Counted from the first letter of the stretch, positions 8,798-30,074 are shown. The stretch: DNA of 32,000 nucleotides from Geotalea daltonii FRC-32 (GCF_000022265.1 NC_011979.1:2730001-2762000); one strand, 5' to 3'. A program made the numbers and translations. The notes: generated by a model not told the origin, from the letters alone.

Positions 8798-10144
8798 ATG
8801 GGTATCGTTACACCACTGAAAACAAAAGATAAACCTTCTTACCCGGAGGGTGTTGACGCGCCCCGCTTCTCCTGCGCACCGGGTGGGGTCTATATGGCGA
8901 CTCTTGCCACCTTTGGCGCCGTGCCCATACTGCATTCGGGGGCAGGCTGCGGCATGTTCCGGAACTCAGGACAGAATCTTGCCGGCGGTCTCAAGGGCGC
9001 CGGTCCCAACGGCAATATCAGCACCCCTTGTTCCTGCATGGCGGAGGATCATGCGTTGTCCGGCGGCGAGGAAAAACTGCGTGGTCTGGTCGGAACCACA
9101 ACCGGCCAAGTCTGCGGCGACCTCTATACAGTCATTTCCGGCTGTGTGCCGGCGCTTATCGGCGACGATGCGGGAGTCGCAGTCAGGGAATTCCGTGGTA
9201 CCGCGCAGGTTATTCACGTGAATACCTCCGGCTTTGCCGGCAACTCTTACATGGGATACGAGCAGTATTTGGAAGCGGTGATAGACCAGTTGCTGGCGCC
9301 GCAGCCAGTGGTGAGAAAGCGCGTCAATCTGCTGGGTATCGTCCCGTACCAGCACGTGTTCTGGAAGGGGAACCTGCAGGTAATCAAGGATCTGCTTGGG
9401 CAGATAGGTGTGCAGGCAAACATGATCTTCACTGAAAATGAGGGTCTGGAGGCGTTGAAAAGTATTCCTTCGGCAGAGCTGAACCTGGTCTTTTCCGCTT
9501 GGTCGGGTGTGAGCACAGCCCGAAAGCTGGAAGAAAAATTCGGTACTCACCATGTGGTCATCCCGTCGGTGCCGATTGGGCCGAAAGACACCTCTACCTT
9601 TCTCCGCTTTCTCGCCCGTCGGCTGCAGCTTAGACGCACCAGAGTCGAAAAAGTCATCGCCGCTGAGGAACATCGGGCCTACCGTTTTACCGAAAATATG
9701 GCCGACATCGCCATGATGGCGCTTCCCCATGCCTATACCGCCATTGTCGCCGATACCGGTACCGCCATCGGGCTCACCAGGTACGGGAGCAATGAACTGG
9801 GATGGCTGCCGGAAGTGGTCGTTATAACCGATGATCCTCCGGAAGAGTTCCGCGCCGACATTATTCGTCACCTGACGGAAGGGCTTGAGAGCGCTGTCAA
9901 GCCAGAAGTGCATTTCGAGATCGATCCCCACAAGATCCGCCTGCTTTTGCGGAAACATACCCTGCAGCTTGTCCTGGCCAGCTCACTTGAAAAGCATATT
10001 GCAACCGACGAGCTGAATGCCATGCAGGTGAGCGTTGCTTTTCCCGCCTATGACCGGCTGATCGCCGATCGTTCCTATGCCGGGTATCGGGGAGGGTTGG
10101 CGTTGATGGAAGATGTAGCATACAAATACGGTGGGCCTTTATAG
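8798..10144 (+). CDS. Nitrogenase component-1-family (Oxidored_nitro) protein, NifK/NifN-like, solo copy
   Basis: FSCAPGG...VPILHSGAGCG...SGCVPALIGDD...SYAGYRGGLALMEDV parallels the K-like protein at 19500..20816 (YVCALGA...VPILHAGPGC...SGCTTEIVGDD...SYVGYRGGLKLLEDI). There is no signal peptide. Confidence 0.8.
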   Translation: MGIVTPLKTKDKPSYPEGVDAPRFSCAPGGVYMATLATFGAVPILHSGAGCGMFRNSGQNLAGGLKGAGPNGNISTPCSCMAEDHALSGGEEKLRGLVGTTTGQVCGDLYTVISGCVPALIGDDAGVAVREFRGTAQVIHVNTSGFAGNSYMGYEQYLEAVIDQLLAPQPVVRKRVNLLGIVPYQHVFWKGNLQVIKDLLGQIGVQANMIFTENEGLEALKSIPSAELNLVFSAWSGVSTARKLEEKFGTHHVVIPSVPIGPKDTSTFLRFLARRLQLRRTRVEKVIAAEEHRAYRFTENMADIAMMALPHAYTAIVADTGTAIGLTRYGSNELGWLPEVVVITDDPPEEFRADIIRHLTEGLESAVKPEVHFEIDPHKIRLLLRKHTLQLVLASSLEKHIATDELNAMQVSVAFPAYDRLIADRSYAGYRGGLALMEDVAYKYGGPL

Positions 10145-10155
10145 GAGAACGACGG

Positions 10156-10247
10156 CTTTTGCGCCAGGGCTGCGTAAGTCTGCGGCTTCCCTTGTGCGAC
10201 GTAGCTTCCGCTACGCCTCCGCGGAAATCCTTGACAGCCTTGCCCTG
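10156..10247. repeat. Structured intergenic repeat, copy A (inverted copy at 16574..16664)
   Basis: CTTTTGCGCCAGGGCTGCGTAAGTCTGCGGCTTCCCTTGTGCGACGTAGCTTCCGCTACGCCTCCGCG... aligns with the reverse complement of 16574..16664. The stems differ by compensatory changes. Confidence 0.5.
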
Positions 10248-10314
10248 ACACAAAATCCGGCGTTCTGCAGCATTGGTGGTTATTCCACTAAAAAATTTAA
10301 CCCAGGAGCTTACT

Positions 10315-11199
10315 ATGGGAACAATTACAGATACTTTCAATCAGGAATCACCAGATGCCAAGATCGTCGTCAGGGACATCAACCGGGTCTTTCACCTGAA
10401 ACGGACCAAGACGGAAGGGGCAAGGGAATTCATCGCCCTCAAGGACATCAATCTGGAAGTGCAGAAAGGTGAGTTTCTGGTGCTGGTCGGGCCTTCCGGC
10501 TGCGGTAAGTCGACCCTCTTGGACATCCTCGCCGGGCTTGCCCAGCCCACCTCCGGCGCCGTCTACATCGACGGCAAACAGGTTAGCGGTCCGGCCCTCG
10601 ATCGGGGTATCGTTCTTCAGGGCTATGCATTGTTCCCGTGGCGGACCGTGCGCCAGAACGTGGAGTTCGGCCTGGAGATCAAGAAGGTTGCCAAGGTGGA
10701 GCGCAAGGCGATCAGCGACCATTTCATCAGCCTGGTTGGCCTGGATGGCTTTGCCGATCGCTATCCCCACGAACTGTCTGGCGGCATGAAGCAGCGGGTG
10801 GCCATCGCCAGGGCACTGGCCTATGATCCCGATGTGCTGCTCATGGACGAACCCTTTGCCGCAGTCGATGCCCAAACCCGTGAGAGCCTGCAGGATGAAC
10901 TCCTGCGCATCTGGGAGGAGACGAAAAAAACCATCGTCTTCGTCACCCACAGTATTGAAGAAGCAGCCTTTCTCGGCGACCGGGTGGCCGTTTTGACTGC
11001 CAATCCCGGCACCCTGCGTGAGATCGTCAAGATCGACCTGCCCAGGCCGCGGCACAACAGCGACATTCGCTCTTCCGCCGAGTTCGGGTGGGTCAGGCAC
11101 AAAATCTGGGAGCTGTTGCAGAACCATCAGCCCGAGATCAGAGTCCCTGCCGACAGCCGCCCGGTGGCCGATATCATTTCGCCATCGGCAGCCCTGTAG
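10315..11199 (+). CDS. ABC transporter ATP-binding protein (SsuB/TauB-like)
   Basis: Walker A GPSGCGKST, signature LSGGMKQRVAIARAL, Walker B LLMDEPF. ATG 10315 follows CAGGAG. Confidence 0.9.
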   Translation: MGTITDTFNQESPDAKIVVRDINRVFHLKRTKTEGAREFIALKDINLEVQKGEFLVLVGPSGCGKSTLLDILAGLAQPTSGAVYIDGKQVSGPALDRGIVLQGYALFPWRTVRQNVEFGLEIKKVAKVERKAISDHFISLVGLDGFADRYPHELSGGMKQRVAIARALAYDPDVLLMDEPFAAVDAQTRESLQDELLRIWEETKKTIVFVTHSIEEAAFLGDRVAVLTANPGTLREIVKIDLPRPRHNSDIRSSAEFGWVRHKIWELLQNHQPEIRVPADSRPVADIISPSAAL

Positions 11200-11210
11200 A
11201 ATGCCCTGTG

Positions 11211-12170
11211 ATGTTTAAACAATTCCTTATCCGTTCATCGGGCGTGATCGCGTTTCTCTTGCTCTGGGAGATCGGGCCCCGGCTGGCCTGGGTTGATCCG
11301 AATTTCCTTCCCTCTTTTTCTACGGTCCTGATGGAGATAGGAAAGCTGTTCAACGACGGCACGTTAAAGGTTCATCTGTTGGTGAGCATCTGGCGTGCCA
11401 CCACCGGACTGCTGCTGGCCCTGGCTATGGGTTTGCCTCTCGGCCTCCTGCTGGGTCGACATCGATTGCATCCGGCAGAAGCTATCGAGCCTTTATTACG
11501 GGTCCTGAGCCAGGTAAATCCCTTTACCCTGATGCCGGTCTTTATTCTGTTCTTCGGCATCGGTGAGACGGCCAAGGTTGCGGTTGTCGCCTGGGTCTGC
11601 CTCTGGCCCGTTCTTTTTTACACCATTACCGCCAGCAGGCATGTGGAGGCGATCCAGATAAAGACGGCAGCTTCCATGGGTATTTCCACCGTGGACATGA
11701 TGCTGAAAGTCATTGTTCCCGGAGCGTTGCCCACTATTTTTGTCGGCATCAGGATCGGCGCTTGTCTGACCTTCTATATCCTGGTGGCAGCGGAGATGCT
11801 GGGTGCCGGCGCCGGACTCGGCTGGCTGGTGCACAATTCCGCGATGAATTACCTGATTCCCCGCATCTATGCGGGAGCCACCTTTATCGTCGTGCTGGGT
11901 TTCCTCCTGAACCGCTTCCTCCTTTACCTGGAACGAGCCCTTTTTTCCTGGCAGTCCAATACCCCTTTGCTGTTCGGTTCTGCCGCTCCCCCGGCAGTCT
12001 TGCGCCCAGGAAAGGGTCTGGTAGCTGCCTTTACCGGTGCTCTGGTCCTGATTGCTCTCCTGGGTGGAATTCAAGTGCAGAAAATCAACAGGGAGGCGGC
12101 TACCGTCAGCGACGGACCACATTCCCATCACTCGGAGACGGGGGGGCACAATGGACACAGTGGATTCTGA
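11211..12170 (+). CDS. ABC transporter permease, NitT/TauT type, copy 3, with an extra C-terminal TM and a His-rich tail
   Basis: MFKQFLIRSSGVIAFLLLWEIGPRLAW...FTLMPVFILFFGIGETAKV...AAEMLGAGAGLGWLV. The tail is ...LVLIALLGGIQVQKINREAATVSDGPHSHHSETGGHNGHSGF. Confidence 0.8.
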   Translation: MFKQFLIRSSGVIAFLLLWEIGPRLAWVDPNFLPSFSTVLMEIGKLFNDGTLKVHLLVSIWRATTGLLLALAMGLPLGLLLGRHRLHPAEAIEPLLRVLSQVNPFTLMPVFILFFGIGETAKVAVVAWVCLWPVLFYTITASRHVEAIQIKTAASMGISTVDMMLKVIVPGALPTIFVGIRIGACLTFYILVAAEMLGAGAGLGWLVHNSAMNYLIPRIYAGATFIVVLGFLLNRFLLYLERALFSWQSNTPLLFGSAAPPAVLRPGKGLVAAFTGALVLIALLGGIQVQKINREAATVSDGPHSHHSETGGHNGHSGF

Positions 12171-12981
12171 GAGAGGGCACCAAAGTAGCATATGTCTAAT
12201 GAGAATAACTGTCGCAGCCCTGGCGCTTTTTGCCTGGGAAGTGCTGCCCCGTATGGAAGTGATAGATCCCCAGTTCGTCCCGCCACTGTCCAGTGTGCTG
12301 GTGACCATAAGGGGATTGCTGGAAAACGGGGACCTGTTGACGCACACGCTGGTCAGTCTGCAACGTGCGTTCAGTGGGCTGTTGGCTGCAACCCTGATCG
12401 GACTGCCGCTCGGACTTGTTCTCGGGGGATGGTTTCCTCGCCTGCAGCAGGCTCTTGAACCGTTGATGGAGCTTTTTGCCCAGGCGAACCCGGTCATCCT
12501 GGCCCATATCATCATCTTCTTTCTGGGGATCGGGGAAGTGGCGAAGATCTTCACCATCTGCTGGCTCTGCATCTGGCCCATTACCTTCAGCACCATTGCC
12601 GGCATCCGGGATGTGGATCCACAGCTGATGAAGGCTGCACGCTCCCTGGGACTCGGCCGATGGCAACTTTTTTTGCACGTCGCGCTTCCTGCCTCGGCTC
12701 CCTCCTTCTTTACCGGTTTGAGGCTGGCCGCCGGGTATGCGTTCCTGATGCTTATCGCTTCGGAAATGATGGGTGCAAGTAATGGGTTGGGATGGCTGGT
12801 GATGCAGAGTCAGGAAAATTACCACATACAACGAATTTTTGCCGGTGCAACGATCATAACTGCCCTGGCGGTACTGACTGACCTGCTGCTTAAGGTGCTG
12901 GAAAAAAGAACTTTGGTCTGGACAGATAATGGTAGCGGCTGGCTGAAACCCCAAGGTCCGGGAATTCCCGTAGGGGAGTAA
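12151..12981 (+). CDS. ABC transporter permease, NitT/TauT type, copy 4 (start at 12151 or 12199)
   Basis: ATG 12151 follows GGAGACGGGGGG and overlaps the end of copy 3 by 20 nt. Motifs: ...FAWEVLPRMEV...IIIFFLGIGEVAKI...ARSLGLGRWQLFLHVALPASAPSFFTGLRL...ASEMMGASNGLGWLV. Confidence 0.8.
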   Translation: MDTVDSERGHQSSICLMRITVAALALFAWEVLPRMEVIDPQFVPPLSSVLVTIRGLLENGDLLTHTLVSLQRAFSGLLAATLIGLPLGLVLGGWFPRLQQALEPLMELFAQANPVILAHIIIFFLGIGEVAKIFTICWLCIWPITFSTIAGIRDVDPQLMKAARSLGLGRWQLFLHVALPASAPSFFTGLRLAAGYAFLMLIASEMMGASNGLGWLVMQSQENYHIQRIFAGATIITALAVLTDLLLKVLEKRTLVWTDNGSGWLKPQGPGIPVGE

Positions 12982-13050: not shown

Positions 13051-13530
13051 ATGAGCCATCCTTCCTTCCGCCACGCCTCCGCTTTGCTCCTCGTCATCCT
13101 CTATGGATTGGTGGTAATGCTCCCTCTTGCTCCTTTTATCCTGCATTCGCCAGCCCTTGCACATGTCCTGACAGGAGAATGCTCCGGCGACTGCAGGGTC
13201 TGTGGCTGTGAATCGGAACGAAGCGCCAATCGTACCTGTTGCTGTTGGCAAAAGAAAGGCCGGATGGTTCCTCTGGACAACGACTGCCGCATCAAACACG
13301 ATCAGCACGAAAAACCAGTAACACCGGTTCTATCCTGTACATCTCCCTGTGGCAAACTCAAACAGTCAATCATCTTTGGAGGGGAAAAATATGAGCAGCC
13401 TCCCTCTGATTTTGTCCAAAATGCAGTGTTCCGTTGTCTTATGGAACTTGCCTCTCACCCGTGCGGTCATCCGCCTTTACGCTACCTGAATCCTCCTGAC
13501 CCGCCACCAAAACTCCTGCATCTTTCCTGA
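13051..13530 (+). CDS. Cys-rich membrane-anchored hypothetical protein
   Basis: RBS is GAAGGAG. Has an N-terminal TM LLLVILYGLVVMLPLAPFIL followed by GECSGDCRVCGCESERSANRTCCCWQKK. I do not recognise a family. Confidence 0.45.
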   Translation: MSHPSFRHASALLLVILYGLVVMLPLAPFILHSPALAHVLTGECSGDCRVCGCESERSANRTCCCWQKKGRMVPLDNDCRIKHDQHEKPVTPVLSCTSPCGKLKQSIIFGGEKYEQPPSDFVQNAVFRCLMELASHPCGHPPLRYLNPPDPPPKLLHLS

Positions 13531-13711
13531 TTGTCAAAACCGGATCTTCCGCTGTGTGTAGCGATCTGCACATGCCAGGGACTGGAATATCTTGATATTC
13601 CCCCAGGATGCGGAACTGACGAACATGCACTCGACATGGGCGAACGGCCTTTCAGCGTCATCGGCCGTCGGGCCGAAATGTATCCGTTCGTCCGGATTAC
13701 AGGAGATTTAC

Positions 13712-14770
13712 ATGAGAGAAGTGATACTGATAGTTACCCTGCTGATGCTGCTAAGTTGTGGTGGCACAGAAGCGGCTGACTTTTTGGAAAATCCGTCTCA
13801 CCATGCCCATGGGGGCAATGGTACCCGGTTACTCTTCAACCCGGCCTTCGGTGAGGACATCTACCATACCCATTCTGCGGGAAAGTGGATGGTCAACTAC
13901 AAAGACCTGCACACGAACCAGAAAGGACTTGGTGCCGGTTCGTCCTCTGTTGCCGTCGAGCAGGTTATTCCCATGAATTCCCCCTATGGCTACATGATGA
14001 CCCCTACCGAAATGTCCATGGATATGCACATGCTGATGATCATGTACGGAGTCAATGACCGCTTTACATTGATGGGCATGGGGACGTACCAGGACAATCG
14101 CATGGACATGCTCATGGATATGGGGATGGGAATGGGGCAGAAAGTAATGTCCATGAGGACGAGCGGCATCGGCGACACGGAACTGCGCGGCATTTATAAT
14201 GTGGGAGGCGGGATCGCAGCCAGCCTGGGATTAACCATCCCCACCGGGGATATTGATCAGGAATTCCAGACCATGGGCATGAAATTCCGGGCACCTTACG
14301 ACATGCAACTGGGTTCAGGCAGCTTCGATCTTAAACCGGTGCTGGCCTACTCGGCATTGACCGATGACGGGCTGTGGAACTGGGGTGGGCAGGTCTCCTA
14401 TACCTGGCACACCAATGAAAATAATAATGGTTATCGCCTGGGAGACACCTTCAAGGCCACAAGTTGGGTGCAACGGGCACTGGGACCGGTGGCAGGCTGG
14501 ACGCGTCTTGCCTTCAACCATACCGGGCCCATCAAAGGCCGGGATGGCGAGATTGAGAAGCTTCTTGACACTACCATGGGGGCTCCGACTCCGGATGCTG
14601 TTGCTGACAACTATGGCGGGCGGCGATTGGATGGGTTTGTCGGCGTGAGTTACAACCAGGGTCCTTTCAGTGTGGGGGTGGAAGGAGGCCTTCCCCTTTA
14701 CCAGTACGTGAACGGCCTGCAGTTGAAAAATGACTGGTATATTAATGCCGGGATACAATTGACGCTTTAA
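13712..14770 (+). CDS. Outer-membrane beta-barrel protein (transporter / MetA-pathway-like) with a Met-rich insert
   Basis: AGGAG lies 6 nt before ATG 13712. Signal sequence is MREVILIVTLLMLLSCGG. Alternating beta-strand pattern, GIGDTELRG, and a terminal ...NAGIQLTL. The Met-rich block is MMTPTEMSMDMHMLMIMYG...NRMDMLMDMGMGMGQKVMSM. Confidence 0.55.
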   Translation: MREVILIVTLLMLLSCGGTEAADFLENPSHHAHGGNGTRLLFNPAFGEDIYHTHSAGKWMVNYKDLHTNQKGLGAGSSSVAVEQVIPMNSPYGYMMTPTEMSMDMHMLMIMYGVNDRFTLMGMGTYQDNRMDMLMDMGMGMGQKVMSMRTSGIGDTELRGIYNVGGGIAASLGLTIPTGDIDQEFQTMGMKFRAPYDMQLGSGSFDLKPVLAYSALTDDGLWNWGGQVSYTWHTNENNNGYRLGDTFKATSWVQRALGPVAGWTRLAFNHTGPIKGRDGEIEKLLDTTMGAPTPDAVADNYGGRRLDGFVGVSYNQGPFSVGVEGGLPLYQYVNGLQLKNDWYINAGIQLTL

Positions 14771-14784
14771 AGGGGAATAACTTC

Positions 14785-14811
14785 TTGACAGAGTACTGGA
14801 AATGATATACA
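14785..14811 (+). promoter_or_regulatory. Sigma70-like promoter of the second nitrogenase-like operon
   Basis: TTGACA (14785..14790), a 15-nt spacer containing TG, then TATACA (14806..14811). The spacer is short, so the call is tentative. Confidence 0.4.
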
Positions 14812-14814
14812 AAG

Positions 14815-14829
14815 CTACTAAATCTATAG
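14815..14829. promoter_or_regulatory. CTAY-N7-ATAG box (box 2) adjoining the -10
   Basis: CTACTAAATCTATAG followed by ACTAAAAG. Confidence 0.45.
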
Positions 14830-14849
14830 ACTAAAAGCCAACCGGAAAA

Positions 14850-14892
14850 CCGGAGGTTTCCTTGCACTTGCTGCGGAACCTCCGGTTTTTTT
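14850..14892 (+). terminator. Intrinsic terminator in the leader of the second operon (also downstream of the OMP gene)
   Basis: CCGGAGGUUUCC-13 nt loop-GGAACCUCCGG followed by 7 U. Confidence 0.6.
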
Positions 14893-14924
14893 GTTGTCCA
14901 TGCCTTTTTATCAAGGAGGTATTC

Positions 14925-15344
14925 ATGATACGCGTTGCCATCGCATCGTCCGATGGGGAATCAATCAATGAACATTTCGGCAAGGCAAGTCAGTTCATCA
15001 TCTATGAGGTGGAGGATGACGGAAATTACCGGCAGGTCGAGAAACGGGAGGTACTTTCCGGTTGCAGCAATGCCGAGACCAGTGTCCATGGCCCAGGAGG
15101 TACGACTGACCGGCTTGGTGATGTACAGGCGGTTTTTGCCGTCCAGATAGGCCCGGGTGCCGCTGCCGCACTGCAGGAAAAAGGTGTCAGGGCTTTCAAT
15201 CTCAAAGGCTCTGTCCACAAGGCTCTTACTGCCTATGGAAAACGGCGCAAGCTGCTGGATGCAAAGATCGCCGGCTTGACCCAGGGATGCGGATCGGGCG
15301 GCGGTTGCGGGTGCGGTGGCTCCGGCGGCAATTCTTGCCGGTAG
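14925..15344 (+). CDS. NifX/NifB-C-terminal-like (dinitrogenase FeMo-cofactor-binding domain) protein with a Gly/Cys tail
   Basis: AAGGAGG RBS. MIRVAIASSDGESINEHFGKASQFIIYEVEDDG...VQAVFAVQIGPGAAAALQEKGV is typical of the Nitro_FeMo-Co domain. The tail is GCGSGGGCGCGGSGGNSCR. Confidence 0.8.
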   Translation: MIRVAIASSDGESINEHFGKASQFIIYEVEDDGNYRQVEKREVLSGCSNAETSVHGPGGTTDRLGDVQAVFAVQIGPGAAAALQEKGVRAFNLKGSVHKALTAYGKRRKLLDAKIAGLTQGCGSGGGCGCGGSGGNSCR

Positions 15345-15376
15345 CTACCACCAATCGATCACCAGAAGGAGACGAC

Positions 15377-16465
15377 ATGTCCACCGCACCATTTAAAGAA
15401 ACAATGACATCCAGGGAACGGACCATTGCTGCACTTACCGGCCAGCCCTATGACCGGATTCCGGTCAATCTGCTCATCAGCGACCATGCGGCAAGGGTCA
15501 TCGGCGTTACCGTCGGCGAATACAACAACTCCGCCAGCCTCATGGCCCAGGGGCAGGTTGCGGCCTGGCGCCGCTACGGGGCCGATAATGTCAATACCGG
15601 CCCCGGACTTACCGGTATTGCCGAGGCCATCGGCAGCAAACTCGCCTACCCCGACTCAACCCCTTACGTGGCCGACTATGTGGTCAAGGAAGAAGCCGAT
15701 TTCGACCGGCTCAAGGTTCCCGATCCTGAGCGGGACGGCCGGTTACCTCTTTTCCTGGAGGCAGCGACCATCGTTCTCAAGGAAGTTGGGGACCAGGTGC
15801 CGCTTAATATGACCACTTCCGGCCCTTTTACCACCGCCACCAGCATCCGTGGCACGGAGAATTTCCTGCGCGACCTTCACAAGAACCCCCAATTTGCCCA
15901 TCGGCTGCTGCGCCTGTCCACCGACAGCATCATTCGTTTTGCGGTAGCGGCAATCAAGGTGGGGGCTCGCATCGGTCTGGCTGACCCGACAGCTTCAGGG
16001 ACGATGATCAGTCCCCGTCAGTTCCGGGAATTCGCCCAACCCTATCTGCAGGAAGTGGCCACAGCCGTTGCCGCCGTCGCCGGCGCGGCTCCGTCATTGC
16101 ACATCTGCGGCAATACCAGCAAGATCTGGCCGGGAATGACTGCCACCGGCGCCTCGGTGTTGAGCCTTGACGATGCCGTGGACATAGCCGAGGCGAAACT
16201 GCAGGTGGGGAACAAGGTCGCTATCCTGGGCAATATCCGGCCGACTGCCGCCATGTACCTGGGCAAGCCGGGCGATGTGCGGGAAAATGCACGGGAGTGT
16301 CTGACAAAGGGCTGGGACAACCCCAAGGGCTATATACTTGGCCTGGGTTGTGGACTTCCCATCGACACGCCGCCGGAAAATATCCATGCCCTGGTCGGCG
16401 CGGCGCGGGAATATGGCCGCTGGCCCCTTGATCCGGCGCGGTTTTCCTTGGGTAATGCAGCATGA
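15377..16465 (+). CDS. URO-D-family methyltransferase (MtaA/MtbA/CmuA-like, corrinoid-dependent type)
   Basis: AAGGAG RBS. TSRERTIAALTGQPYDRIPV...ADPTASGTMISPRQFREFAQPYL...SLHICGNTSKIW...ILGLGCGLPIDTPPENIHAL. Confidence 0.75.
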   Translation: MSTAPFKETMTSRERTIAALTGQPYDRIPVNLLISDHAARVIGVTVGEYNNSASLMAQGQVAAWRRYGADNVNTGPGLTGIAEAIGSKLAYPDSTPYVADYVVKEEADFDRLKVPDPERDGRLPLFLEAATIVLKEVGDQVPLNMTTSGPFTTATSIRGTENFLRDLHKNPQFAHRLLRLSTDSIIRFAVAAIKVGARIGLADPTASGTMISPRQFREFAQPYLQEVATAVAAVAGAAPSLHICGNTSKIWPGMTATGASVLSLDDAVDIAEAKLQVGNKVAILGNIRPTAAMYLGKPGDVRENARECLTKGWDNPKGYILGLGCGLPIDTPPENIHALVGAAREYGRWPLDPARFSLGNAA

Positions 16466-16505
16466 CATCATGGATATCCGGACCATTTTGCTGGCACCGG
16501 TGTAA

Positions 16506-16686
16506 CTAGTTTCCATCCGGAAACTCCGGATGAGAAACTAGTGGTTTCCGATTCGGAAAGAGGGGATTTTTTGTTCTGGCAAGGAAATCAAGGGCTTGCG
16601 CGGAGACGTACATCGGTACGTCGCACAAGTAAGCCCGCAGATTGACGCCGCCAGGGCAGAAAAGAACCCTTTCCGGATGGAAACTA
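16506..16686. repeat. Element bounded by 17-bp perfect terminal inverted repeats (MITE/REP-like) in the methyltransferase-metY2 spacer
   Basis: TAGTTTCCATCCGGAAA (16506..16522) and TTTCCGGATGGAAACTA (16670..16686). Nested palindromes include TTTCCGATTCGGAAA. Repeat copy B lies inside it. Confidence 0.45.
16574..16664. repeat. Structured intergenic repeat, copy B (inverted relative to 10156..10247)
   Basis: Its reverse complement CTTTTCTGCCCTGGCGGCGTCAATCTGCGGGCTTACTTGTGCGACGTACCGATGTACGTCTCCGCGC... aligns with copy A. Confidence 0.5.
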
Positions 16687-16713
16687 ACTAACCAGAATAA
16701 GGAGTAACAGCCC

Positions 16714-18027
16714 ATGGCTTACGGAGATTTAAGTTTCGACACGGTGAAAGTGCGGGGAGGGTACGACCCGAAGGCGCACAACCTGGCGGTTTCGGTACCG
16801 ATCTATCAAACGGCGTCCTTCGAGCTGGGGGACACGGAGCGGGTCGAGCGGTTGCTCCGCTTCAAAGAGCTTGGTTTCGTCTATACCCGGCTCGGCAACC
16901 CTACCGTGCAAGTGCTGGAGGAGCGGATCGCTGCACTGGACGGCGGCAGTGCCGCCATTGCGGTAGGGTCGGGGATGGCTGCAGTTACCTATGCCCTGTT
17001 CAACGTGGCGGAAGGGGGAGGGCGGATACTGACCACCCGCAACCTCTACGGCGGTACCGAGGACAGCTTCAAGAAGCTCTTTCCCACCTTTGGCATAGGC
17101 ATTGACCAGGTTGATGATGCCGATGATGTGGATCAGTTTCGCCGGGGGATAAAACCGGAGACCAGGGCCATCTTCGTAGAGAGTATCAGCAACCCCAACG
17201 CCACGCTGCTGGATTTGGAGCGGATCGCTGACGTGGCCCATGAAAACGGCATCCCGCTCATTGTCGACAATACCTTTGCTACCCCCTATCTCTTCAACCC
17301 CCTAAAGCATGGGGCGGATATCGTTGTATATTCGGCCACCAAGGCGTTGGGGGGGCACGGCAACACCATTGCCGGAGTTATCGTCGAAGGGGGCACCTTC
17401 GACTGGGGGAACGGAAAGTTTCCCCAGTTTACCAAGCCCCACTACCTTTTGCGGGACGATACCGGTGTGGAGCGCAGTTTCCTGGAGATCACCCGTGAGT
17501 TCCCCTTTACCCTCCGGGTCCGCCTCAACTACCTGGTCTATTTCGGCGCCGTCCTGAGCCCGTTCGATGCCTACCTGATCCTGCAGGGGGTCGAAACCCT
17601 GTCGGAGCGGGTCCAGAAGCAGATGACCAACACGGAAAAGATCATCCGTTATCTGGAATCGAAGGGCGAGGTTGCCTGGATCAAGCATCCCTCGGCAAAG
17701 GAAAGTCCCTACCGGGCACTGGCCGAGCGATATTTCCCGAAAGGGGCAGGTTCCACCTTCACCTTCGGGTTCAGGGGGGATGAGGCGCAACGTGACGCCT
17801 TCATCAATTCTGTGAGGCTGTTCAGTTATCAGGCCAATGTGGGTGACAGCCGTTCCCTGATCATCAACTCCCCGAAAACCACCCATGGGGAATTGACACC
17901 GGACGAGCTGGCACTGGCAGATATCCCCCCCGAGACCATCCGGCTTTCCCTCGGGCTGGAGGACGCCAATGACCTGATTGCCGATCTTGAGCAGGCCTTT
18001 GCCCGGTCTCTCGGCGGGAAGGAGTGA
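16714..18027 (+). CDS. O-acetylhomoserine sulfhydrylase paralogue (MetY-like)
   Basis: AAGGAG RBS. ...VSVPIYQTASFELGD...FVYTRLGNPT...YSATKALGGHGN...SLGLED. It is clearly homologous to the gene at 5139..6428 but divergent from it. Confidence 0.85.
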   Translation: MAYGDLSFDTVKVRGGYDPKAHNLAVSVPIYQTASFELGDTERVERLLRFKELGFVYTRLGNPTVQVLEERIAALDGGSAAIAVGSGMAAVTYALFNVAEGGGRILTTRNLYGGTEDSFKKLFPTFGIGIDQVDDADDVDQFRRGIKPETRAIFVESISNPNATLLDLERIADVAHENGIPLIVDNTFATPYLFNPLKHGADIVVYSATKALGGHGNTIAGVIVEGGTFDWGNGKFPQFTKPHYLLRDDTGVERSFLEITREFPFTLRVRLNYLVYFGAVLSPFDAYLILQGVETLSERVQKQMTNTEKIIRYLESKGEVAWIKHPSAKESPYRALAERYFPKGAGSTFTFGFRGDEAQRDAFINSVRLFSYQANVGDSRSLIINSPKTTHGELTPDELALADIPPETIRLSLGLEDANDLIADLEQAFARSLGGKE

Positions 18028-18029
18028 TC

Positions 18030-19499
18030 ATGGCGGTACATCTGAACAATAGTGAAAGTGGCACCAGGGAAAACAGGCTCGGTTCTATCACTGCTTATCA
18101 CGGGACCCTGCGTGACCTGAACACAAGGTCCGGGTGCGGCAGCCTTGTGGACAAGGGGCGCTGCTACAGCCAGGCAAGCCTCTGTAACGCCGCCTGCGCC
18201 CTGAGTCAGCTCAGCTTCATAACCGACGCCGCGGTGGTGCACCACGCTCCGGCAGGGTGCGCCGTTACCGCCATGCAGGTCTGTAATGCCAAGGATCAAT
18301 TGGCTGAATCGCTCGGCCTGGATAATTCCCGCTCGGGCTATGTCTGCACCGACATGAACGATTCGGACGTGATCTTCGGCGCCACCGAAAACTTGAAGGA
18401 CGTGGTGCGGGAGACCTGGAGCCGCTACAAACCTTCAGCCATCTTCATCGGCGCCTCCTGCGTCAGCGGCATCATCGGCGAAGATCTTGAGAGTACGGCT
18501 GCCGAACTGATGGAAGAGTTACCGGTGCCGGTCGCCCCTGTCCATTGCGAGGGCTTCAAGACCAAGATCTGGGCCTCGGGTTTCGACGGGGCCTATCACG
18601 CCATCCTCACCCATGTCGTCAAACCGCCGCAGAAAAAAACCAATACGGTCAACGTGATCAACTTTTTCGGCAGTGCCCGGAAGCAGATCACAGAGATTTT
18701 TGCCAACTTCGGCGTAGAGCCGCTTTTCCTTACCTCCAACACGACAATCGACCAACTCTCCCGGTTGGGGGAAGCGGCGGCTACCATAAGCACCTGCGGC
18801 ACCCTGGGGACCTACCTGGGGGCAGGGCTGGAGGAGAAGTATGGCGTTCCCTATGTGAAGTCGTTGCAGCCCCACGGCATCGCCGGGTTCGAGAGCTGGC
18901 TGCGGGGGCTGGGGGAGGCTCTTGGGAAAGAGGCGGAGGTGGAGGCTTTTCTGGACAAGGAACGTTCCCTTTACCTGCCACGGATCGATGCCATCCGCGC
19001 AAAACTCAAAGGGCTTAGGGCGGTGGTCGGCATGGGGCCCGGCTTCAACTTCAACACTTCCCGTGCTGTCCAGGAACTTGGGATCGAGATCGCCCATGCT
19101 GCCGCGTGGCATTTCGACAAACAGTATGACGATGGCAATGCGCCGGATGCCTTCACTTACCAGGTGGAGCATTCCCCCACCGACTACAGCCTGTCGGTGA
19201 ACGATCTGCAGAACCACGAGCTGCTCAACATCCTCCAGCGGGAAAAGCCGGACATCTTCTTCTCCCGCCATGCCGGATCCACGGTTTGGGCCATGAAATT
19301 GGGCATTCCGGCCATTTGCGTCTACGACGAGTATGCAATCTTCGGCTACCGGGGATTGTTGAATTTCGCATCGTCCATCCATGATGTGGTGACCAACCGG
19401 AGTTTCACTGACAACCTGGCCGGCCGGGTGAGGCTCCCGTACACCGACTGGTGGTTCCGGCAGCGCACCGACCATTTCTATTCCAAGGAGAACGGGTAG
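18030..19499 (+). CDS. Nitrogenase-like alpha-type subunit (NifD/NifE-like)
   Basis: GGAAGGAG lies before ATG 18030, which abuts the metY2 stop. Motifs: SLCNAACAL, HHAPAGC, GASCVSGIIGED, HCEGF, ISTCGTLGTYLGAGLEEKYGVPY. Confidence 0.8.
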   Translation: MAVHLNNSESGTRENRLGSITAYHGTLRDLNTRSGCGSLVDKGRCYSQASLCNAACALSQLSFITDAAVVHHAPAGCAVTAMQVCNAKDQLAESLGLDNSRSGYVCTDMNDSDVIFGATENLKDVVRETWSRYKPSAIFIGASCVSGIIGEDLESTAAELMEELPVPVAPVHCEGFKTKIWASGFDGAYHAILTHVVKPPQKKTNTVNVINFFGSARKQITEIFANFGVEPLFLTSNTTIDQLSRLGEAAATISTCGTLGTYLGAGLEEKYGVPYVKSLQPHGIAGFESWLRGLGEALGKEAEVEAFLDKERSLYLPRIDAIRAKLKGLRAVVGMGPGFNFNTSRAVQELGIEIAHAAAWHFDKQYDDGNAPDAFTYQVEHSPTDYSLSVNDLQNHELLNILQREKPDIFFSRHAGSTVWAMKLGIPAICVYDEYAIFGYRGLLNFASSIHDVVTNRSFTDNLAGRVRLPYTDWWFRQRTDHFYSKENG

Positions 19500-20816
19500 A
19501 TGACGAGAATAATTGATCAGCCCAGGTATGTCTGTGCACTGGGGGCGATGCAGACGGTCCAGGGTATTTACCGCGGGGTGCCTATCCTGCATGCCGGCCC
19601 TGGCTGCGCAGGGAAGCTGGCAGCGGGAATTGCCGGAAACAACGGCGATTCCGGTTACATTTCGCCCCAGGTCTATCCCTGCACAAACGTATCAGAGACA
19701 GAGATCGTCTTTGGCGGCGAAGAGAATTTGCGGCAGACCATTGACAACGCGCTGAAAGTAATCGATGGCGATTTTTTTATCGTCCTGTCCGGCTGTACCA
19801 CCGAGATCGTCGGCGATGATATCGCCACCGTGACCCGCGAATTCGGCGATCGGGACAAGCCGGTGATTTTTGTGGAAACGGCCGGTTTCAAGGGAACCAA
19901 CCTGGAAGGGCACGAGTGGGTAATCGATGCCATTATCGAGCAGTATCTGGCTAAAAAGCCGCCAGTCGAGAAGGTGAAAGGGCTGGTCAATATTTGGGGG
20001 CCGGTTCCTTCCTACGATCCTTTCTGGGTAGGAAACATCAGGGAACTGGAAGCGCTGGTTGCGGAACTGGGCCTGACGCCGAACATCATTTTCGGTGAGT
20101 ATCGAGGGATTGCCGAGATAGACAGGATTCCGGCGGCGGAATACAATCTTCTCGTGGCACCGTGGGTCGGACTGAAGAACATGAAGTCCCTTCAAGAGAA
20201 ATTCGGGACGCCGTACCTGCATTATCCGACCCTGCCCATCGGCGCCTTCGAAACCAGCAGGTTCCTGCGGGCAGTCGGTGAATTTGCCGGGGTGGATCCG
20301 TCGAAGGTCGAGGGGATCATCGGCAGGCACGAGAGGGAATACTATTACCATATTGAACGAACCTCGGACGTCTTCCTGGAGAACCGCACCATGTCGCGGC
20401 GCTTTTCCACGGTGACCAACGCGGCCGATGCCCTGGCAATCTCCCGGTTCCTGGTGAACGACTTCGGGTTGGTGCCGGACCGGCAGTACATCACCGACGG
20501 TACCCCGGCGAAGCATCGTGACGCCATTATCCAGCTGTTCAAGGAATTTCAGTACGGGATCGAGGCAGAGGTTGTCTTCTCGACCGACGGCTACGAAATC
20601 CACAACGACATCAGGAACAACGACTACTTCGGGGCGCCGCTCATCATCGGCAGCATCTATGAGAAGAAACTGGCCGAGGAATTGAACGGCAATTTTCTGG
20701 CGGTGTCGGTGCCGTTCAAAGAACGGCTGGTCCTGAGCAGTTCCTACGTGGGGTACCGCGGCGGCTTGAAATTGCTGGAAGATATCTATACCTATGTGCT
20801 TAAGCAATTCAATTGA
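19500..20816 (+). CDS. Nitrogenase-like beta-type subunit (NifK/NifN-like)
   Basis: The ATG immediately follows the TAG of the D-like gene. Motifs: YVCALGAMQ, VPILHAGPGC, SGCTTEIVGDD, SYVGYRGGLKLLEDI. Confidence 0.8.
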   Translation: MTRIIDQPRYVCALGAMQTVQGIYRGVPILHAGPGCAGKLAAGIAGNNGDSGYISPQVYPCTNVSETEIVFGGEENLRQTIDNALKVIDGDFFIVLSGCTTEIVGDDIATVTREFGDRDKPVIFVETAGFKGTNLEGHEWVIDAIIEQYLAKKPPVEKVKGLVNIWGPVPSYDPFWVGNIRELEALVAELGLTPNIIFGEYRGIAEIDRIPAAEYNLLVAPWVGLKNMKSLQEKFGTPYLHYPTLPIGAFETSRFLRAVGEFAGVDPSKVEGIIGRHEREYYYHIERTSDVFLENRTMSRRFSTVTNAADALAISRFLVNDFGLVPDRQYITDGTPAKHRDAIIQLFKEFQYGIEAEVVFSTDGYEIHNDIRNNDYFGAPLIIGSIYEKKLAEELNGNFLAVSVPFKERLVLSSSYVGYRGGLKLLEDIYTYVLKQFN

Positions 20817-20862
20817 GGTGTGGAAACGCCGATTGCAGCGGCATGCTGACCTGAAAGACCTG

Positions 20863-20892
20863 AGGCCATGGACTTTTTCCATGGCCTTTTTT
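20863..20892 (+). terminator. Rho-independent terminator of the second nitrogenase-like operon
   Basis: AGGCCATGGA-cuuuu-UCCAUGGCCU followed by a U-run. Confidence 0.75.
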
Positions 20893-20991
20893 CATTACAA
20901 GGCCGGTGCGGTATCGGGTTGGAGGGGGAAAATGGATGATTGTGTTTGTTTGAGCGTGGAAACATCTTGATGGAATTAGAAAGTGAGGAGC

Positions 20992-22641: not shown

Positions 22642-22725
22642 TAGAAGCCTTCTTAACATCATTCAACCTCTCTCCGCAGGGTTCACTTCGTGGAGAACGT
22701 AACCTTGAAGCACAAAAGGACAAGC

Positions 22726-23904
22726 ATGAGTACACAACACTTTGATTTCGATAGGGTCATCGACCGCCGCAATACAGGCAGCGAGAAATGGGACAAGTAT
22801 GCAGGGCGGGACATCATTCCCCTCTGGGTTGCGGATATGGATTTCCGCTCGCCGCCGGCGGTGATCGAGGCACTGCACGAGCGGGTCGAGCATGGTATTT
22901 TCGGCTATACCCATCCCCCGGCAGAATTGGTTGAGGCCGTACAGGCATCGCTACTGGCCGACTACGACTGGGCGGTGGAGGCAGAATGGATCGTCTGGCT
23001 GCCGGGGCTGGTCTGCGGGCTCAATGTGCTCAGTCTTGCCGTTGGCGAACCAGGTGACCAGGTAATTACCTTCATACCGGTTTATCCGCCATTCATGTCT
23101 GCTCCCGGGCTCACCGGACGGACACTGGTCAAGGTTCCCCTCAAGCTGGAAGATGATCGCTGGCAGATGGATCTGCCTGGCCTGGAATTGGCCATAACTT
23201 CGCGTACCAGATTATTGCTCCTCTGTTCGCCACACAACCCGGTGGGACGTTCCTGGTCCAGGGAAGAACTGGCGGCAATTGCCCAGGTGGCTGAACGTCA
23301 CAATCTCATCATCGGTTCCGATGACATCCACGCCGGACTGGTGCTGGATGAGGACAAACGGCATATCCCCATCGCCACCCTGTCTCCGGAAACGGCACGG
23401 CGCACCATTACCCTGCTGGCACCGAGCAAAACGTACAACATTCCAGGCCTCGGTTGTTCCTTTGCCGTCATCTCCGATCCGGGTTTGCGCCGCGCCTTCC
23501 GCAGCGCCAAGGGCCGCATTGTCCCCCATGTGAATACCCTGGGCTATACAGCGGCGTTGGCCGCCTATCGCCATGGGGAAGAATGGCGCCGGCAGTTGCT
23601 GGATTACCTGCGAGGAAACCGGGATCTGCTTACGGCGGAGATAAATTCCATGCCCGGCCTTACCATGGCCCATGTGGAAGCCACCTACCTTGCCTGGATC
23701 GATGCACGGGGGGCTGGCATAGAGGACCCGGCCGTGTTCTTTGAAGAGGCGGGGGTAGGGCTCTCCGATGGCGCCGATTTTGGCTCCCCCGGTTTTGTCA
23801 GGCTCAATTTCGGCTGCAGCAGGACTCTGCTGCTGGAGGCTCTGGGCCGGATGCGTCAGGCCTTGTCGCAAGAAGTGCCATTAAGGAGTAAAATCGAGAG
23901 GTGA
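22726..23904 (+). CDS. PatB/MalY-type PLP-dependent C-S lyase (cystathionine beta-lyase-like aminotransferase class I/II)
   Basis: MSTQHFDFDRVIDRRNTGSEKWDKY...IPLWVADMDF...APSKTYNIPGL...VRLNFGC. Confidence 0.85.
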   Translation: MSTQHFDFDRVIDRRNTGSEKWDKYAGRDIIPLWVADMDFRSPPAVIEALHERVEHGIFGYTHPPAELVEAVQASLLADYDWAVEAEWIVWLPGLVCGLNVLSLAVGEPGDQVITFIPVYPPFMSAPGLTGRTLVKVPLKLEDDRWQMDLPGLELAITSRTRLLLLCSPHNPVGRSWSREELAAIAQVAERHNLIIGSDDIHAGLVLDEDKRHIPIATLSPETARRTITLLAPSKTYNIPGLGCSFAVISDPGLRRAFRSAKGRIVPHVNTLGYTAALAAYRHGEEWRRQLLDYLRGNRDLLTAEINSMPGLTMAHVEATYLAWIDARGAGIEDPAVFFEEAGVGLSDGADFGSPGFVRLNFGCSRTLLLEALGRMRQALSQEVPLRSKIER

Positions 23905-24064: not shown

Positions 24065-26263
24065 ATGGAACCCATTTATCTTGATTACAACGCCACCACC
24101 CCAGTGGACCCATTGGTGGTCGAGGAACTGCTCCCATACCTTCGTGAGGGGTTCGGCAACCCCTCCAGCAGCCACCCCTATGGCAAAAAGGCGAAGGAGG
24201 GGGTCGAGACGGCCAGGAAACGAGTTGCCGGGCTTCTGGACTGCGATCCCGCTGAAATTGTCTTCACCAGCGGCGGCACCGAGGCCAACAATCAGGCATT
24301 GATCGGCACCGCCATGGCCAACCGGGAAAAGGGCAATCACATCATCACCACTGCCATCGAACATCCGGCAGTTCTCAATCCCTTACACTGGCTGGAAGGG
24401 CAGGGTTTCGCCGTTACCTATCTGCCGGTGGACGGTTACGGCCAGGTTGATCCGCAAATGATACGCCAGGCCATCACCGACAAGACCATCCTCATCAGCG
24501 TCATGCACGCCAACAATGAAGTGGGCACCATTCAGCCCCTGGCGGAAATAGGCGCCATTGCCCGGGAACATGGCATTCTTTTCCACACGGATGCGGCCCA
24601 GTCGGTGGGAAAGATACCCACCAGGGTGGACGAGCTGCGGGTGGATCTCCTTTCCATTGCCGGTCACAAGCTCTACGCGCCGAAAGGAATCGGGGCGCTG
24701 TATGTGAGGCGGGGGGTGAAGATCGATTCCTATCTTCATGGAGCCGGGCATGAAGGTGGTCGCCGCGCCGGTACCGAAAATGTTCCGTACATGGCTGCCC
24801 TGGGCAAAGCTGCGGAACTGGCTGCCGAGCACCTGGCAACCGAGAGCGAACATGTCCTTTCCTTGCGTGAGCGGTTCCATGACCGGCTCAAAGAGCTGGT
24901 GGGCGATGTACTTCTCAACGGGCACCCCACCTCCCGCCTTCCCAATACCCTCAATGTAAGCTTTGCCGGGGTCAACGGCGCCGATCTTCTGGCCCGTACC
25001 CCCGAGATTGCCGCTTCCACCGGTTCCGCCTGCCATGACGGCAGCTGCGAACTGTCCGGGGTGCTCAAGGCCATGGGCCTTTCGCCGGAACAGGGATTCG
25101 GCGCTGTCCGCTTCAGTCTGGGACGTCTCACTACTGTCGAAGAACTGGACCGGGCGGCGGAGATAGTTGCCGCGAGGGTAAAGGAACTGCGGGGCATTCG
25201 CGGCGGAGTCTCCCACAACCATGTCCAGACCGGCCTTTCAGCCCTTGCCTCCTGCGCCGGCTGAGCGGCCAAACTCAGTCCCCAGGACCTGGCTCACGTG
25301 CTGAGTCAGCTACCCAGCAGCACCGATCCCAATGTGCTTATCGGCACCAAAACCGCCGATGATGCCGCCGTTTATCGGCTGAGCGACACCCTGGCCATTG
25401 TTGAAACGGTCGATTACTTTACGCCGGTGGTGGACGATCCCTACACCTTCGGCCAGATCACTGCCGCCAACTCCCTGTCCGACATCTACGCCATGGGGGC
25501 AACGCCGCTCTTTGCCCTCAATATCGCCGGTTTTCCGTCTGATACGCTGCCTTTGGATGTACTGGCGAAGATCCTTAAAGGGGGGGCGGACAAAGCAGCT
25601 GAGGCCGGCATCAGCATCATCGGTGGCCACACCATCAAGGATGCGGAGCCAAAGTACGGTATGGCGGTTACCGGCGTGATCCACCCGGACAAGGTCATCA
25701 GCAATGCCGGCGCCAGACCGGGGGATCGCCTGATCCTCACCAAACCCCTCGGCATCGGCATCATTACCACCGCCATGAAACAGGGCAAGGTTTCGGAGAA
25801 AACGATCAGAGCGGCGACAGAGGTAATGGCCACCCTCAACAAGGGGGCGGCAGAGGCTATGGCAACTGTTGATGCCCATGCCTGCACCGATGTTACCGGC
25901 TTCGGCTTCCTTGGGCATCTTTCGGAAATGGTACGGGGAAGCGGCGTTGGCGCCGTGATCAACCTGGCACAAGTGCCGGTGCTGGAGGAGACCTGGTCCC
26001 TGGTGCGGCAGGGACTTGTACCAGGGGGTAGCAGACGTAATCTGGAATTTCTTCGGGAGCGGCTGTTGCCGGGAGCGGGGGTAAGTGAAGAAGCCCTGCT
26101 GGTGCTGGCCGATGCCCAGACTTCGGGCGGGTTGCTCATCGCCGTAGCCGCTGCCGATGCCGAGCGGCTGAAGGAAGAGCTGGCAAGGCGTAATGTGCCG
26201 GTGGTGGCGGAAATCGGTGAGATAACTGATGACCCGGACAGCCGGATCAGGATCGAAGACTGA
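24065..26263 (+). CDS. selD: Fusion selenoprotein: NifS-like cysteine desulfurase / selenocysteine lyase domain plus selenide,water dikinase (SelD), joined in frame across TGA 25262..25264 (Sec)
   Basis: ORFs 24065..25264 and 25298..26263 share one frame. Across the junction the sequence reads ...LSALASCAG-[TGA]-AAKLSPQDLAHVLSQLP..., which is the SelD N-terminal (C/U)-loop context. The NifS part has HKLYAPKGIG and STGSAC. The SelD part has GTKTADDAAVYRL and DYFTPVVDDPYTFGQI. Confidence 0.8.
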
Positions 26264-26273
26264 AATACTCTGG

Positions 26274-26345
26274 TTAGCCACGAATGACGCGAATTTACAC
26301 GAATTTTTTTGAACCAGATCTATTTGCTGCGAGATTCGTGGCTAA
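26274..26345. repeat. 12-bp perfect inverted repeat enclosing CGAAT direct repeats, between selD and the methyltransferase gene
   Basis: TTAGCCACGAAT (26274..26285) and ATTCGTGGCTAA (26334..26345). CGAAT also occurs at 26290..26294 and 26300..26304. Confidence 0.5.
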
Positions 26346-26372
26346 AGGCTCTTGCCAGATGAAGGGTTGGCT

Positions 26373-28705: not shown

Positions 28706-28921
28706 GGTGAATTCCTTAACGTGTAATAGCGCAGCGGCGGAGCGAAGCGGTTATTGTTTTGTCGTTAACGTCGTGAAGGTCGCACCAGCGCGTCAGCGCC
28801 TGTGTGCGGCTCTTCTACCGTATTGACCATTTCCCCGAGATGGTCATCTACGGCTTTCTCCGACAGAAGGTGCATCCAATCGTGCACCAATCCGAAAATG
28901 TCAGCCATCGTCTCTGCCACA

Positions 28922-30035: not shown

Positions 30036-30074
30036 GGGCTGACCGGCCTCAAGGTGATTTCATTAACTTATACC

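Follow-up and report, generated by a model that had tools for sequence, protein, structure and literature searches.

Which reaction might a nitrogenase-like enzyme catalyze when its genes stand in one operon with a methionine-synthesis enzyme and a putative thiol methyltransferase, and with no Fe protein gene nearby? This question is raised by a locus of Geotalea daltonii FRC-32, of which we analyzed a stretch of 32,000 nt (the window; all coordinates are counted from its start). The open reading frame (ORF) table and family scans revealed five plus-strand ORFs at 14925-20816. They encode a NifX/NafY-like cofactor carrier of 139 aa (14925-15344; Nitro_FeMo-Co PF02579, 74.5 bits), a URO-D-fold protein of the MtaA/CmuA family (15377-16465; URO-D PF01208, 311.6 bits), a divergent O-acetylhomoserine sulfhydrylase, that is, a MetY paralogue (16714-18027; Cys_Met_Meta_PP PF01053, 372.3 bits), and the D (alpha-like) and K (beta-like) subunits of a group-IV nitrogenase-like reductase (18030-19499 and 19500-20816; Oxidored_nitro, 259.4 and 227.7 bits). 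An earlier reading of the sequence alone (the original prediction) had given the same ORF ends and the junctions 15344/15377, 18027/18030, and 19499/19500, and these recurred in Geotalea toluenoxydans, where the gene calls and spacing were the same and the gene order was shared by two assemblies. On balance, we lean towards seeing in these five genes a trimmed but functional core of an organosulfur C-S reductase system that feeds MetY, with the Fe protein and NifB acting in trans.

Among solved structures, D best matched MarD of the Rhodospirillum rubrum methylthio-alkane reductase (Mar; PDB 9fmg_A, 329.9 bits, next D match at most 141 bits), and K best matched MarK (9d9u_C, 358.7 bits, next K match 78 bits), leads of about 190-280 bits. 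Identity to R. rubrum MarDK was about 36-41% (36% for D versus MarD). Both subunits were far under the NCBIfam cut-offs of the nitrogenase models: D scored 129 bits for nifD (cut-off 654) and 159 for nifE (505), and K scored 83 bits for nifK (427) and 52 for nifN (327). These scores support a Mar-related pair that is neither NifDK nor NifEN, in line with the original prediction.

The ligand positions point the same way. Cys52, Cys77, and Cys144 of D align with the MarD P-cluster ligands Cys66, Cys91, and Cys158, and Cys12, Cys36, and Cys99 of K align with those of MarK, so all six P-cluster Cys are kept. In the MarD structure, Cys270 and His429, the latter from the Mar-specific Loop I, ligate the [Fe8S9C] cluster, and Arg428, beside His429, is a proposed Mar hallmark (PMC12552129). 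In the alignment, Cys256 of D corresponds to MarD Cys270, Arg413-His414 to Arg428-His429, and Trp181 and His361 to Trp195 and His375; all of these residues were invariant in 116/116 homologues. D/K are thus shown by alignment to carry putative Mar-type ligands (Cys256, Arg413-His414) for an [Fe8S9C] L-like cluster. The motifs quoted in the original prediction (SLCNAAC, HHAPAGC, GASCVSGIIGED, ISTCGTLGTYLGAGLEEKYGVPY, ICVYDEYA, YVCALGA, HAGPGC, and SGCTTEIVGDD) were all present in the translations, and its statement that the region matching the NifD cofactor His has no His was right for that region only. The loop aligned with NifD His442 does carry Tyr (Tyr435, invariant in the 116 homologues), but the Mar ligand His429 is kept as His414 in another loop; the missing His was an alignment artefact of matching D to the NifD His442 loop.

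In a neighbour-joining tree of D (34 sequences, 490 columns, 100 bootstraps), window D fell outside the MarD clade, in a clade that we name clade W, whose D-like ORFs in the sampled loci were at least 51% identical to window D. W, Mar, and Nfl1 each received a bootstrap of 100/100, and W stood outside Mar+Nfl1, with (Mar+Nfl1+x) as its sister group at 77/100; the pair did not fall inside a characterized clade. Across GTDB, scanned at one genome for each species, at least 571 genomes encoded relatives, spanning Bacillota, Bacteroidota, Geobacter, Myxococcales, Actinomycetota, Spirochaetes, Fibrobacter, Dehalococcoidia, and others. The synteny sample comprised 80 GTDB loci, 34 of them fully flanked, whose D-like ORFs grouped as W, Mar orthologues, the Heliophilum fasciatum NflD1 type, intermediates, and distant D' clades. 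True Mar orthologues, 71-80% identical to R. rubrum MarD (Firmicutes), stood beside W in loci such as L037 and L071, indicating that W is a paralogue and not an orthologue of Mar. Assigning a subgroup by the Cys numbering of E. proavitum NfaD/NfaK was rejected as non-discriminating, since the numbering was near-identical in all group-IV clades.

These placements bear on the possibility that the pair is another methylthio-alkane reductase isozyme, which would cleave Mar substrates (dimethyl sulfide (DMS), methylthioethanol, and ethyl methyl sulfide) and pass methanethiol to MetY, with the URO-D gene incidental. Mar is indeed the closest solved structure, and every Mar hallmark ligand is present, including the Loop I Arg-His. 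Moreover, O-acetylhomoserine sulfhydrylase is the known capture enzyme of Mar products (PMC13474568), and specialized Mar isozymes occur in R. palustris (10.64898/2026.08.20.746119). However, a pair with only 36% identity to MarD and a position outside Mar+Nfl1 fits poorly as an isozyme when Firmicute orthologues of 71-80% share loci with W. In addition, the active-site His194 of MarD, near belt sulfide S2B, is replaced by Ile180 in window D and by Ile or Val in 116/116 clade members, and CysK, not MetY, partners many relatives. We consider such an isozyme unlikely. Since W shares loci with Mar orthologues and has Ile or Val instead of His194 in every member, its substrate probably differs from that of Mar.

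How would such an enzyme receive electrons? No GKGGxGKS motif occurred in the six frames of the 32 kb, and tblastn searches of it at E ≤ 1 with A. vinelandii NifH and Geobacter NFL NifH queries gave no credible match (best E = 0.46), indicating, as had been proposed, that the window holds no Fe protein and that the reductase component would come from elsewhere. The original prediction had named the lack of a NifH gene in cis together with its variant pathway; among the relatives this lack was not the rule. For the synteny analysis, all ORFs of the 80 loci were compared by blastp with window and reference proteins; the CysK, NifB N-terminal (MarB-like), and NifH partner references were confirmed by NCBIfam. 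A NifH-like gene lay within 10 kb of W D/K in 24/34 fully flanked loci and a NifX-like gene in 20/34. The other ten (10/34) had no NifH inside 10 kb, indicating that H in trans is common; it has been documented for H. fasciatum (PMC9147875) and R. palustris (10.64898/2026.08.20.746119), so H-less DK pairs are not new. The closest H-containing relative was a Geobacter metagenome-assembled genome (MAG; D 80%) with the order MetY-D-K-MetY-(CysE-like)-NifX followed by NifH and NifB-like genes on the opposite strand, about 3 kb downstream of D/K. Absence of NifH is a local feature of Geotalea with precedents, and not a property of the clade.

Adjacency to MetY or CysK was frequent in the sample. 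A dedicated MetY, sharing at least 50% identity with that of the operon, was found within 2 kb of W D/K in 15/80 loci, a CysK-like gene in 24/80, and one or the other in 38/80. Overall, W relatives are habitually flanked by NifH-, NifB-, and NifX-like genes, MetY or CysK, and sulfonate-type ATP-binding cassette (ABC) transporters. The fullest set, that of Acetivibrio mesophilus, reads perm-ABC-K'-D'-NifB-NifX-H-D-K-CysK-corrinoid protein-URO-D-URO-D. Many Clostridia have a further, distant nitrogenase-like pair (D' 27-30%, K' 33-40% identity) directly upstream of the W D-K genes, with an ABC ATPase gene in front of it (L021, L023, L025, L026, L040, L044, L048, L057, L060, and L065).

A third Oxidored_nitro gene, missing from the original prediction, was found in the window. 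This orphan K-like gene, K2 (8798-10144, +; PF00148, 217.8 bits; MarK, 250.8 bits), keeps all three Cys and is 34-36% identical to every K clade tested. It sits between two permease pairs plus an ABC ATPase, in a transporter of the nitrate/sulfonate/taurine (NitT/TauT) family with four permeases and one ATPase (6982-12981, +; BPD_transp_1, ABC_tran), and D2 is absent from the window. Relatives of K2 in 56 metagenome loci normally form D2-K2 pairs, often in the order H-D2-K2-ABC ATPase-permease, and metagenome locus L090 carries the transporter cluster of the window plus H, CysK, and D2. The ratio of nonsynonymous to synonymous substitution rates (dN/dS) was 0.27 for K2 versus 0.034 for the neighbouring ATPase, indicating relaxed constraint. 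Probably, K2 is what remains of a second enzyme, D2-K2; the Geotalea lineage seems to have lost H, B, CysK, and D2 from what was once a larger sulfur island. The best NCBIfam models of the transporter (TauC, SsuC, SaoP, and ntrCD) were all under cut-off; this NitT/TauT-type system flanking K2 is likely a substrate importer. Its ATPase was also considered as a replacement for NifH and rejected, being a standard NitT/TauT ATPase flanked by permeases.

If H, NifB, D2, and CysK were lost, the D/K pair might itself be non-functional or on its way out. The gene content of L090 and the relaxed constraint on K2 would fit such a decaying remnant, as would a mobile-element-like insertion that splits the operon, a palindromic element of 186 bp resembling a miniature inverted-repeat transposable element (16506-16691, no strand; terminal inverted repeats at 16506-16523 and 16670-16687). 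Because of this hairpin-forming insertion, absent from G. toluenoxydans, the URO-D/MetY junction (16465/16714) spans 248 bp instead of 61 bp; the intergenic region folds into a long hairpin (-112.9 kcal/mol, z = -9.85), and a partial copy of the element (48 nt, 77% complementary) lies in the K2/ATPase intergenic region at 10156-10203. The unit described as compact is therefore tight at most junctions but not at this one. Selection on the coding sequences nevertheless speaks against decay. The nearest protein came from G. toluenoxydans (98% identity), and relative to this species the dN/dS was 0.058 for D, 0.042 for K, 0.11 for MetY, 0.18 for URO-D, and 0.37 for the NifX-like gene, values (0.04-0.37) indicating strong purifying selection on these genes and a maintained operon. 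At least three Geotalea assemblies carry intact D and K ORFs with all ligands kept, DK loci without H are common among the relatives, and one H is known to serve several DK pairs (PMC9147875). A decaying remnant is thus quite improbable.

The operon is closed by an intrinsic terminator (20862-20896, +), with an 11-bp stem at 20862-20888 containing six G-C pairs and followed by a T-run, which confirms the strong terminator noted before. A strong hairpin with a T-run (14846-14892, +) was also found in the leader, the 154 nt that separate the NifX-like start from the outer-membrane gene upstream. The leader (14771-14924) folds at -48.1 kcal/mol (z = -3.64) with a 17-bp stem, and two G. toluenoxydans assemblies have the identical hairpin, which either terminates the upstream unit or acts as an attenuator. 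An Rfam scan of the leader and of the URO-D/MetY gap found no riboswitch or other family match, and a sigma-70 scan gave five promoter-like sites versus 4.7 expected in shuffled sequence.

What do the three partner genes add? The operon MetY scored 479.9 bits for TIGR01326, slightly under the cut-off of 495.1. A housekeeping MetY is encoded in the same window (5139-6428; TIGR01326, 696 bits) and is 44% identical to it, which supports the proposal of a dedicated MetY in the operon, apparently a divergent paralogue. The NifX-like protein matched the nifX model and the C-terminal domain of the nifB model, and its best PDB match was the NafY core 1p90. It ends in a Gly/Cys-rich tail, GCGSGGGCGCGGSGGNSCR (15278-15344), and similar CxxC...C-R tails were found only in Geobacteraceae homologues and one Bacillota MAG (L025); the tail may be an extra metal or cluster site.

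The URO-D protein scored 207-216 bits for the mtaA_cmuA family versus 93 bits for hemE. A true uroporphyrinogen decarboxylase was rejected, as the hemE cut-off is 303 and the Zn-site motifs align with MtaA. Its best PDB match was MtaA 4ay7, whose His-x-Cys and Cys motifs, which we take to be the Zn ligands, are matched by LHICGN and GLGCG, and H-x-C-G was kept in 120/120 URO-D homologues. The match supports the MtaA-like thiol methyltransferase of the original prediction, in our terms a putative 'Mlp'-like Zn (His-Cys-Cys) thiol/selenol:corrinoid methyltransferase of the MtaA/CmuA family. Orthologues 52-88% identical sit in nitrogenase-like clusters, and those of 64-88% are common in Geobacteraceae. 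Context look-ups seeded with URO-D met a nitrogenase-like cluster in 3/3 cases: a divergent NifB-like gene followed by NifX-URO-D-URO-D-DUF1638 in Geomonas, H-H-NifB-like-URO-D-CysTWA-NifX-CysK in Citrifermentans, and, in the third, corrinoid protein-URO-D-URO-D-RACo-radical S-adenosylmethionine (SAM)-URO-D-NifX-NifH. In the Geobacteraceae NifB-URO-D-NifX-NifH module, the URO-D start overlaps or abuts the NifB-like stop, and orthologues of 52-57% adjoin DK pairs in H. fasciatum and a Desulfitobacteriaceae MAG. The coupling of URO-D and nitrogenase-like genes is real but lineage-restricted.

A link of this kind between MtaA-like, nitrogenase-like, and MetY genes is already published: Kountz and Balskus (2023) described mlp clusters associated with MarHDK-like genes, MetY, CysK, and PatB (PMC10418091). 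Type I mlp clusters of their non-selenium clade share with the window the MtaA-like His-Cys-Cys Zn protein, anaerobic hosts, and these associations (PMC10418091); a PatB-family C-S lyase is encoded in a separate downstream unit of the window (22690-23904, +; TIGR04350, 479 bits, cut-off 340), though still among sulfur amino-acid functions. The differences lie in completeness. A type I mlp set needs at least Mlp2 and Mlp3 and has a corrinoid protein and RACE/RACo, whereas the window holds a single URO-D gene, no B12-binding tblastn match, and no RACo domain in the scanned ORFs; its only corrinoid protein is the mercury-methylation protein HgcA, 13 kb off on the opposite strand. In addition, 73% of the described clusters are from Firmicutes (PMC10418091), whereas the window host belongs to Geobacteraceae.

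Genes for a NifS-like cysteine desulfurase, SelD, and an ArsM-like SAM methyltransferase lie downstream at 24065-27155 (+). SelD matched TIGR00476 (376 bits) with the first ~30 profile positions missing, and its frame runs upstream through an in-frame TGA (SCAG-TGA-AAKL), so SelD is predicted to be a selenocysteine (Sec)-containing selenoprotein. The original prediction had allowed for selenium, and a methyl-selenium pathway would have DK and the MtaA-like enzyme release selenide or methylselenol for selenomethionine and, via SelD, selenocysteine. The predicted Sec-containing SelD and the NifS-like gene stand only 3-5 kb downstream of the operon, HgcA of the window is likewise a predicted selenoprotein, most type I mlp clusters are selenium-linked, and Mlp2, which transfers a methyl group between cobalamin and either selenide or sulfide, favours selenide in vitro (PMC10418091). 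The SelD, NifS, and methyltransferase genes, however, form separate units behind four unrelated genes, and as neighbours they are confined to Geotalea: SelD was near DK in 0 of the 80 related GTDB loci except for G. toluenoxydans. Nitrogenase-like-associated clusters were placed in the non-selenium clade by Kountz and Balskus (PMC10418091), and the partners elsewhere are CysK, MetY, and sulfate/sulfonate transporters. A selenium pathway is improbable, and the selenium variant shrinks to a Geotalea-specific neighbourhood.

A nitrogen-related function, as proposed for group IV-A Nfa (reduction of N2 or N-oxides), would make the sulfur genes bystanders. It draws on the IV-A label that Kountz and Balskus gave to mlp-associated DK genes (PMC10418091) and on the IV-A systems of E. 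proavitum and H. fasciatum, which are implicated in N2 fixation (PMC13474568, PMC9147875). In H. fasciatum, NflDK1-5 are served by a single NflH (PMC9147875). The pair credited with N2 fixation, the published IV-A-like NflDK1, shows only 43% (D) and 49% (K) identity to the window pair and belongs to a separate clade; the orthologue of the window pair is a different one (K 57%, D 55% over the available part), beside a 362-aa URO-D gene (52%). The MetY-D-K order at NflDK1 is that of the window, whereas the same 20-kb region of H. fasciatum also holds what the window lacks, namely H, CysK, and a full NifB with radical SAM and NifX domains. NflDK1 itself (L088 5643-13280) is embedded in MetY-D-K-H-CysK-NifB beside a sulfonate-type transporter, a context no less fitting for sulfur assimilation than for nitrogen fixation. 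The neighbours of W are consistently sulfur amino-acid enzymes and sulfonate/sulfate transporters, and the window ORFs that were scanned included neither PII nor any other gene of nitrogen regulation. We regard a nitrogen function as highly improbable.

Three known systems help to frame the preferred reading of a trimmed organosulfur C-S reductase. MarBHDK of R. rubrum (group IV-C; PDB 9fmg, 9d9u) shares with the window pair the six P-cluster Cys, the cofactor Cys, the Loop I Arg-His, Trp195, and His375, as well as the O-acetylhomoserine sulfhydrylase link and a sulfur-assimilation neighbourhood; it differs in that the window has no marB and marH in cis, has MetY, NifX-like, and MtaA-like genes inside the operon, and has Ile in place of His194. 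R. palustris NflDK3 (RPA2363-64), like the window pair, has no H or B of its own and adjoins an O-acetylhomoserine sulfhydrylase and a transporter, and it is induced by sulfate limitation (10.64898/2026.08.20.746119). NflDK3 is a close Mar relative (52-56% to MarDK1), whereas the window pair belongs to a deeper clade with NifX-like and MtaA-like partners. The isethionate reductase IsrBHDK (group IV-F; PMC11423573) is likewise nitrogenase-like, serves anaerobic organosulfur assimilation, and has adjacent sulfonate-type ABC transporters; by description it is set apart by a predicted [4Fe-4S] cluster like that of dark-operative protochlorophyllide oxidoreductase and the need for a radical SAM partner (PMC13474568).

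In the proposed pathway, an organosulfur compound would be imported by the adjacent NitT/TauT-type transporter, and DK would reductively cleave its C-S bond with electrons from an ATP-dependent Fe protein encoded elsewhere. Three nifH homologues, one orthologous to a Desulfitobacterium nitrogenase-like operon, are reported for G. daltonii FRC-32 (PMC3306737). The released methanethiol or sulfide would be joined with O-acetylhomoserine by the dedicated MetY, giving methionine or homocysteine. The NifX-like protein would bring a NifB-made cluster precursor to D; a NifX homologue is required for DMS use in R. palustris (10.64898/2026.08.20.746119). The MtaA-like Zn enzyme would shift an S-methyl group to or from a corrinoid, either demethylating methanethiol or a methylthio compound to sulfide or methylating homocysteine, so that the sulfur of methylated compounds could reach both Met and Cys.

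Several points weigh against this pathway. Its substrate and product are deduced from neighbours only, and R. palustris NflDK3, another H-less DK beside MetY, was inactive on the tested sulfur volatiles (10.64898/2026.08.20.746119). The tblastn search of the 32 kb at E ≤ 1 found no NifB-like, no B12-binding, and no further D-like remnant match; with no NifH, NifB, or corrinoid protein in the 32 kb, the Fe protein, NifB, and any corrinoid protein would all be encoded elsewhere. No match labelled Geotalea appeared among the 120 best (79-92% identity) of an NFL-type Geobacter NifH query. URO-D is rarely adjacent across clade W (within 5 kb in 3/46 loci), so its role may be accessory. The tree that separates W from Mar and Nfl1 is a neighbour-joining tree of 34 sequences made without the published group IV-A to IV-F reference sequences. 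There is also a lesser chance that W represents a novel member of the nitrogenase family, acting on a substrate of its own and with the MtaA-like protein as an integral partner. Geotalea would then either run it entirely on a borrowed Fe protein and NifB, perhaps the ones that serve nitrogenase, which would couple sulfur assimilation to nitrogen-fixation machinery, or use no Fe protein. Its step could be, for example, a second one after Mar, releasing sulfide from methanethiol or another small thiol or thioether.

Other features of the window are as follows. Directly upstream of the operon, two genes (13051-14770, +) encode a Cys-rich protein and a Met-rich outer-membrane-like protein. The former has 159 aa, an N-terminal hydrophobic segment, no family match, and a 41% homologue in the nitrogenase-like locus L086 of Geomonas; the latter has a weak Phenol_MetA_deg match and MDMHMLM..MGMGMGQ runs. 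The mercury-methylation genes at 1271-2697 (-) comprise hgcA (1573-2547; NF040863, 459 bits) and hgcB (1271-1816; Fer4). The hgcA frame extends upstream through an in-frame TGA after Cys (..KPPC-TGA-GPRPP..), making HgcA a predicted selenoprotein with the CU selenocysteine motif that Haft and Gwadz reported. Intergenic regions near DUF2461 and CorA genes hold a direct repeat of 47 nt in two copies (28919-28965 and 30072-30118; 87% identical), which may be a shared regulatory site.

Taken together, the observation behind the original prediction is confirmed and its interpretation as a whole partly supported: the finding is real and was rightly seen as Mar-related and methionine-linked, and the enzyme belongs to a large uncharacterized sister clade. 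To our knowledge, volatile organosulfur compounds can be turned into methionine without oxygen only through C-S-cleaving nitrogenase-like enzymes, whose reactions also yield methane and ethylene. No member of clade W, sister to Mar and the NflDK1 type, has been experimentally characterized, even though the clade is so widespread. A testable hypothesis for how sulfur is cycled anaerobically in soils, sediments, and guts follows from its habitual association with MetY or CysK and, in several lineages, corrinoid methyltransferases. The Geotalea set, reduced to X, Mlp, MetY, D, and K, is minimal and found in a cultivable genus, and it provides a natural test of Fe protein and NifB sharing.

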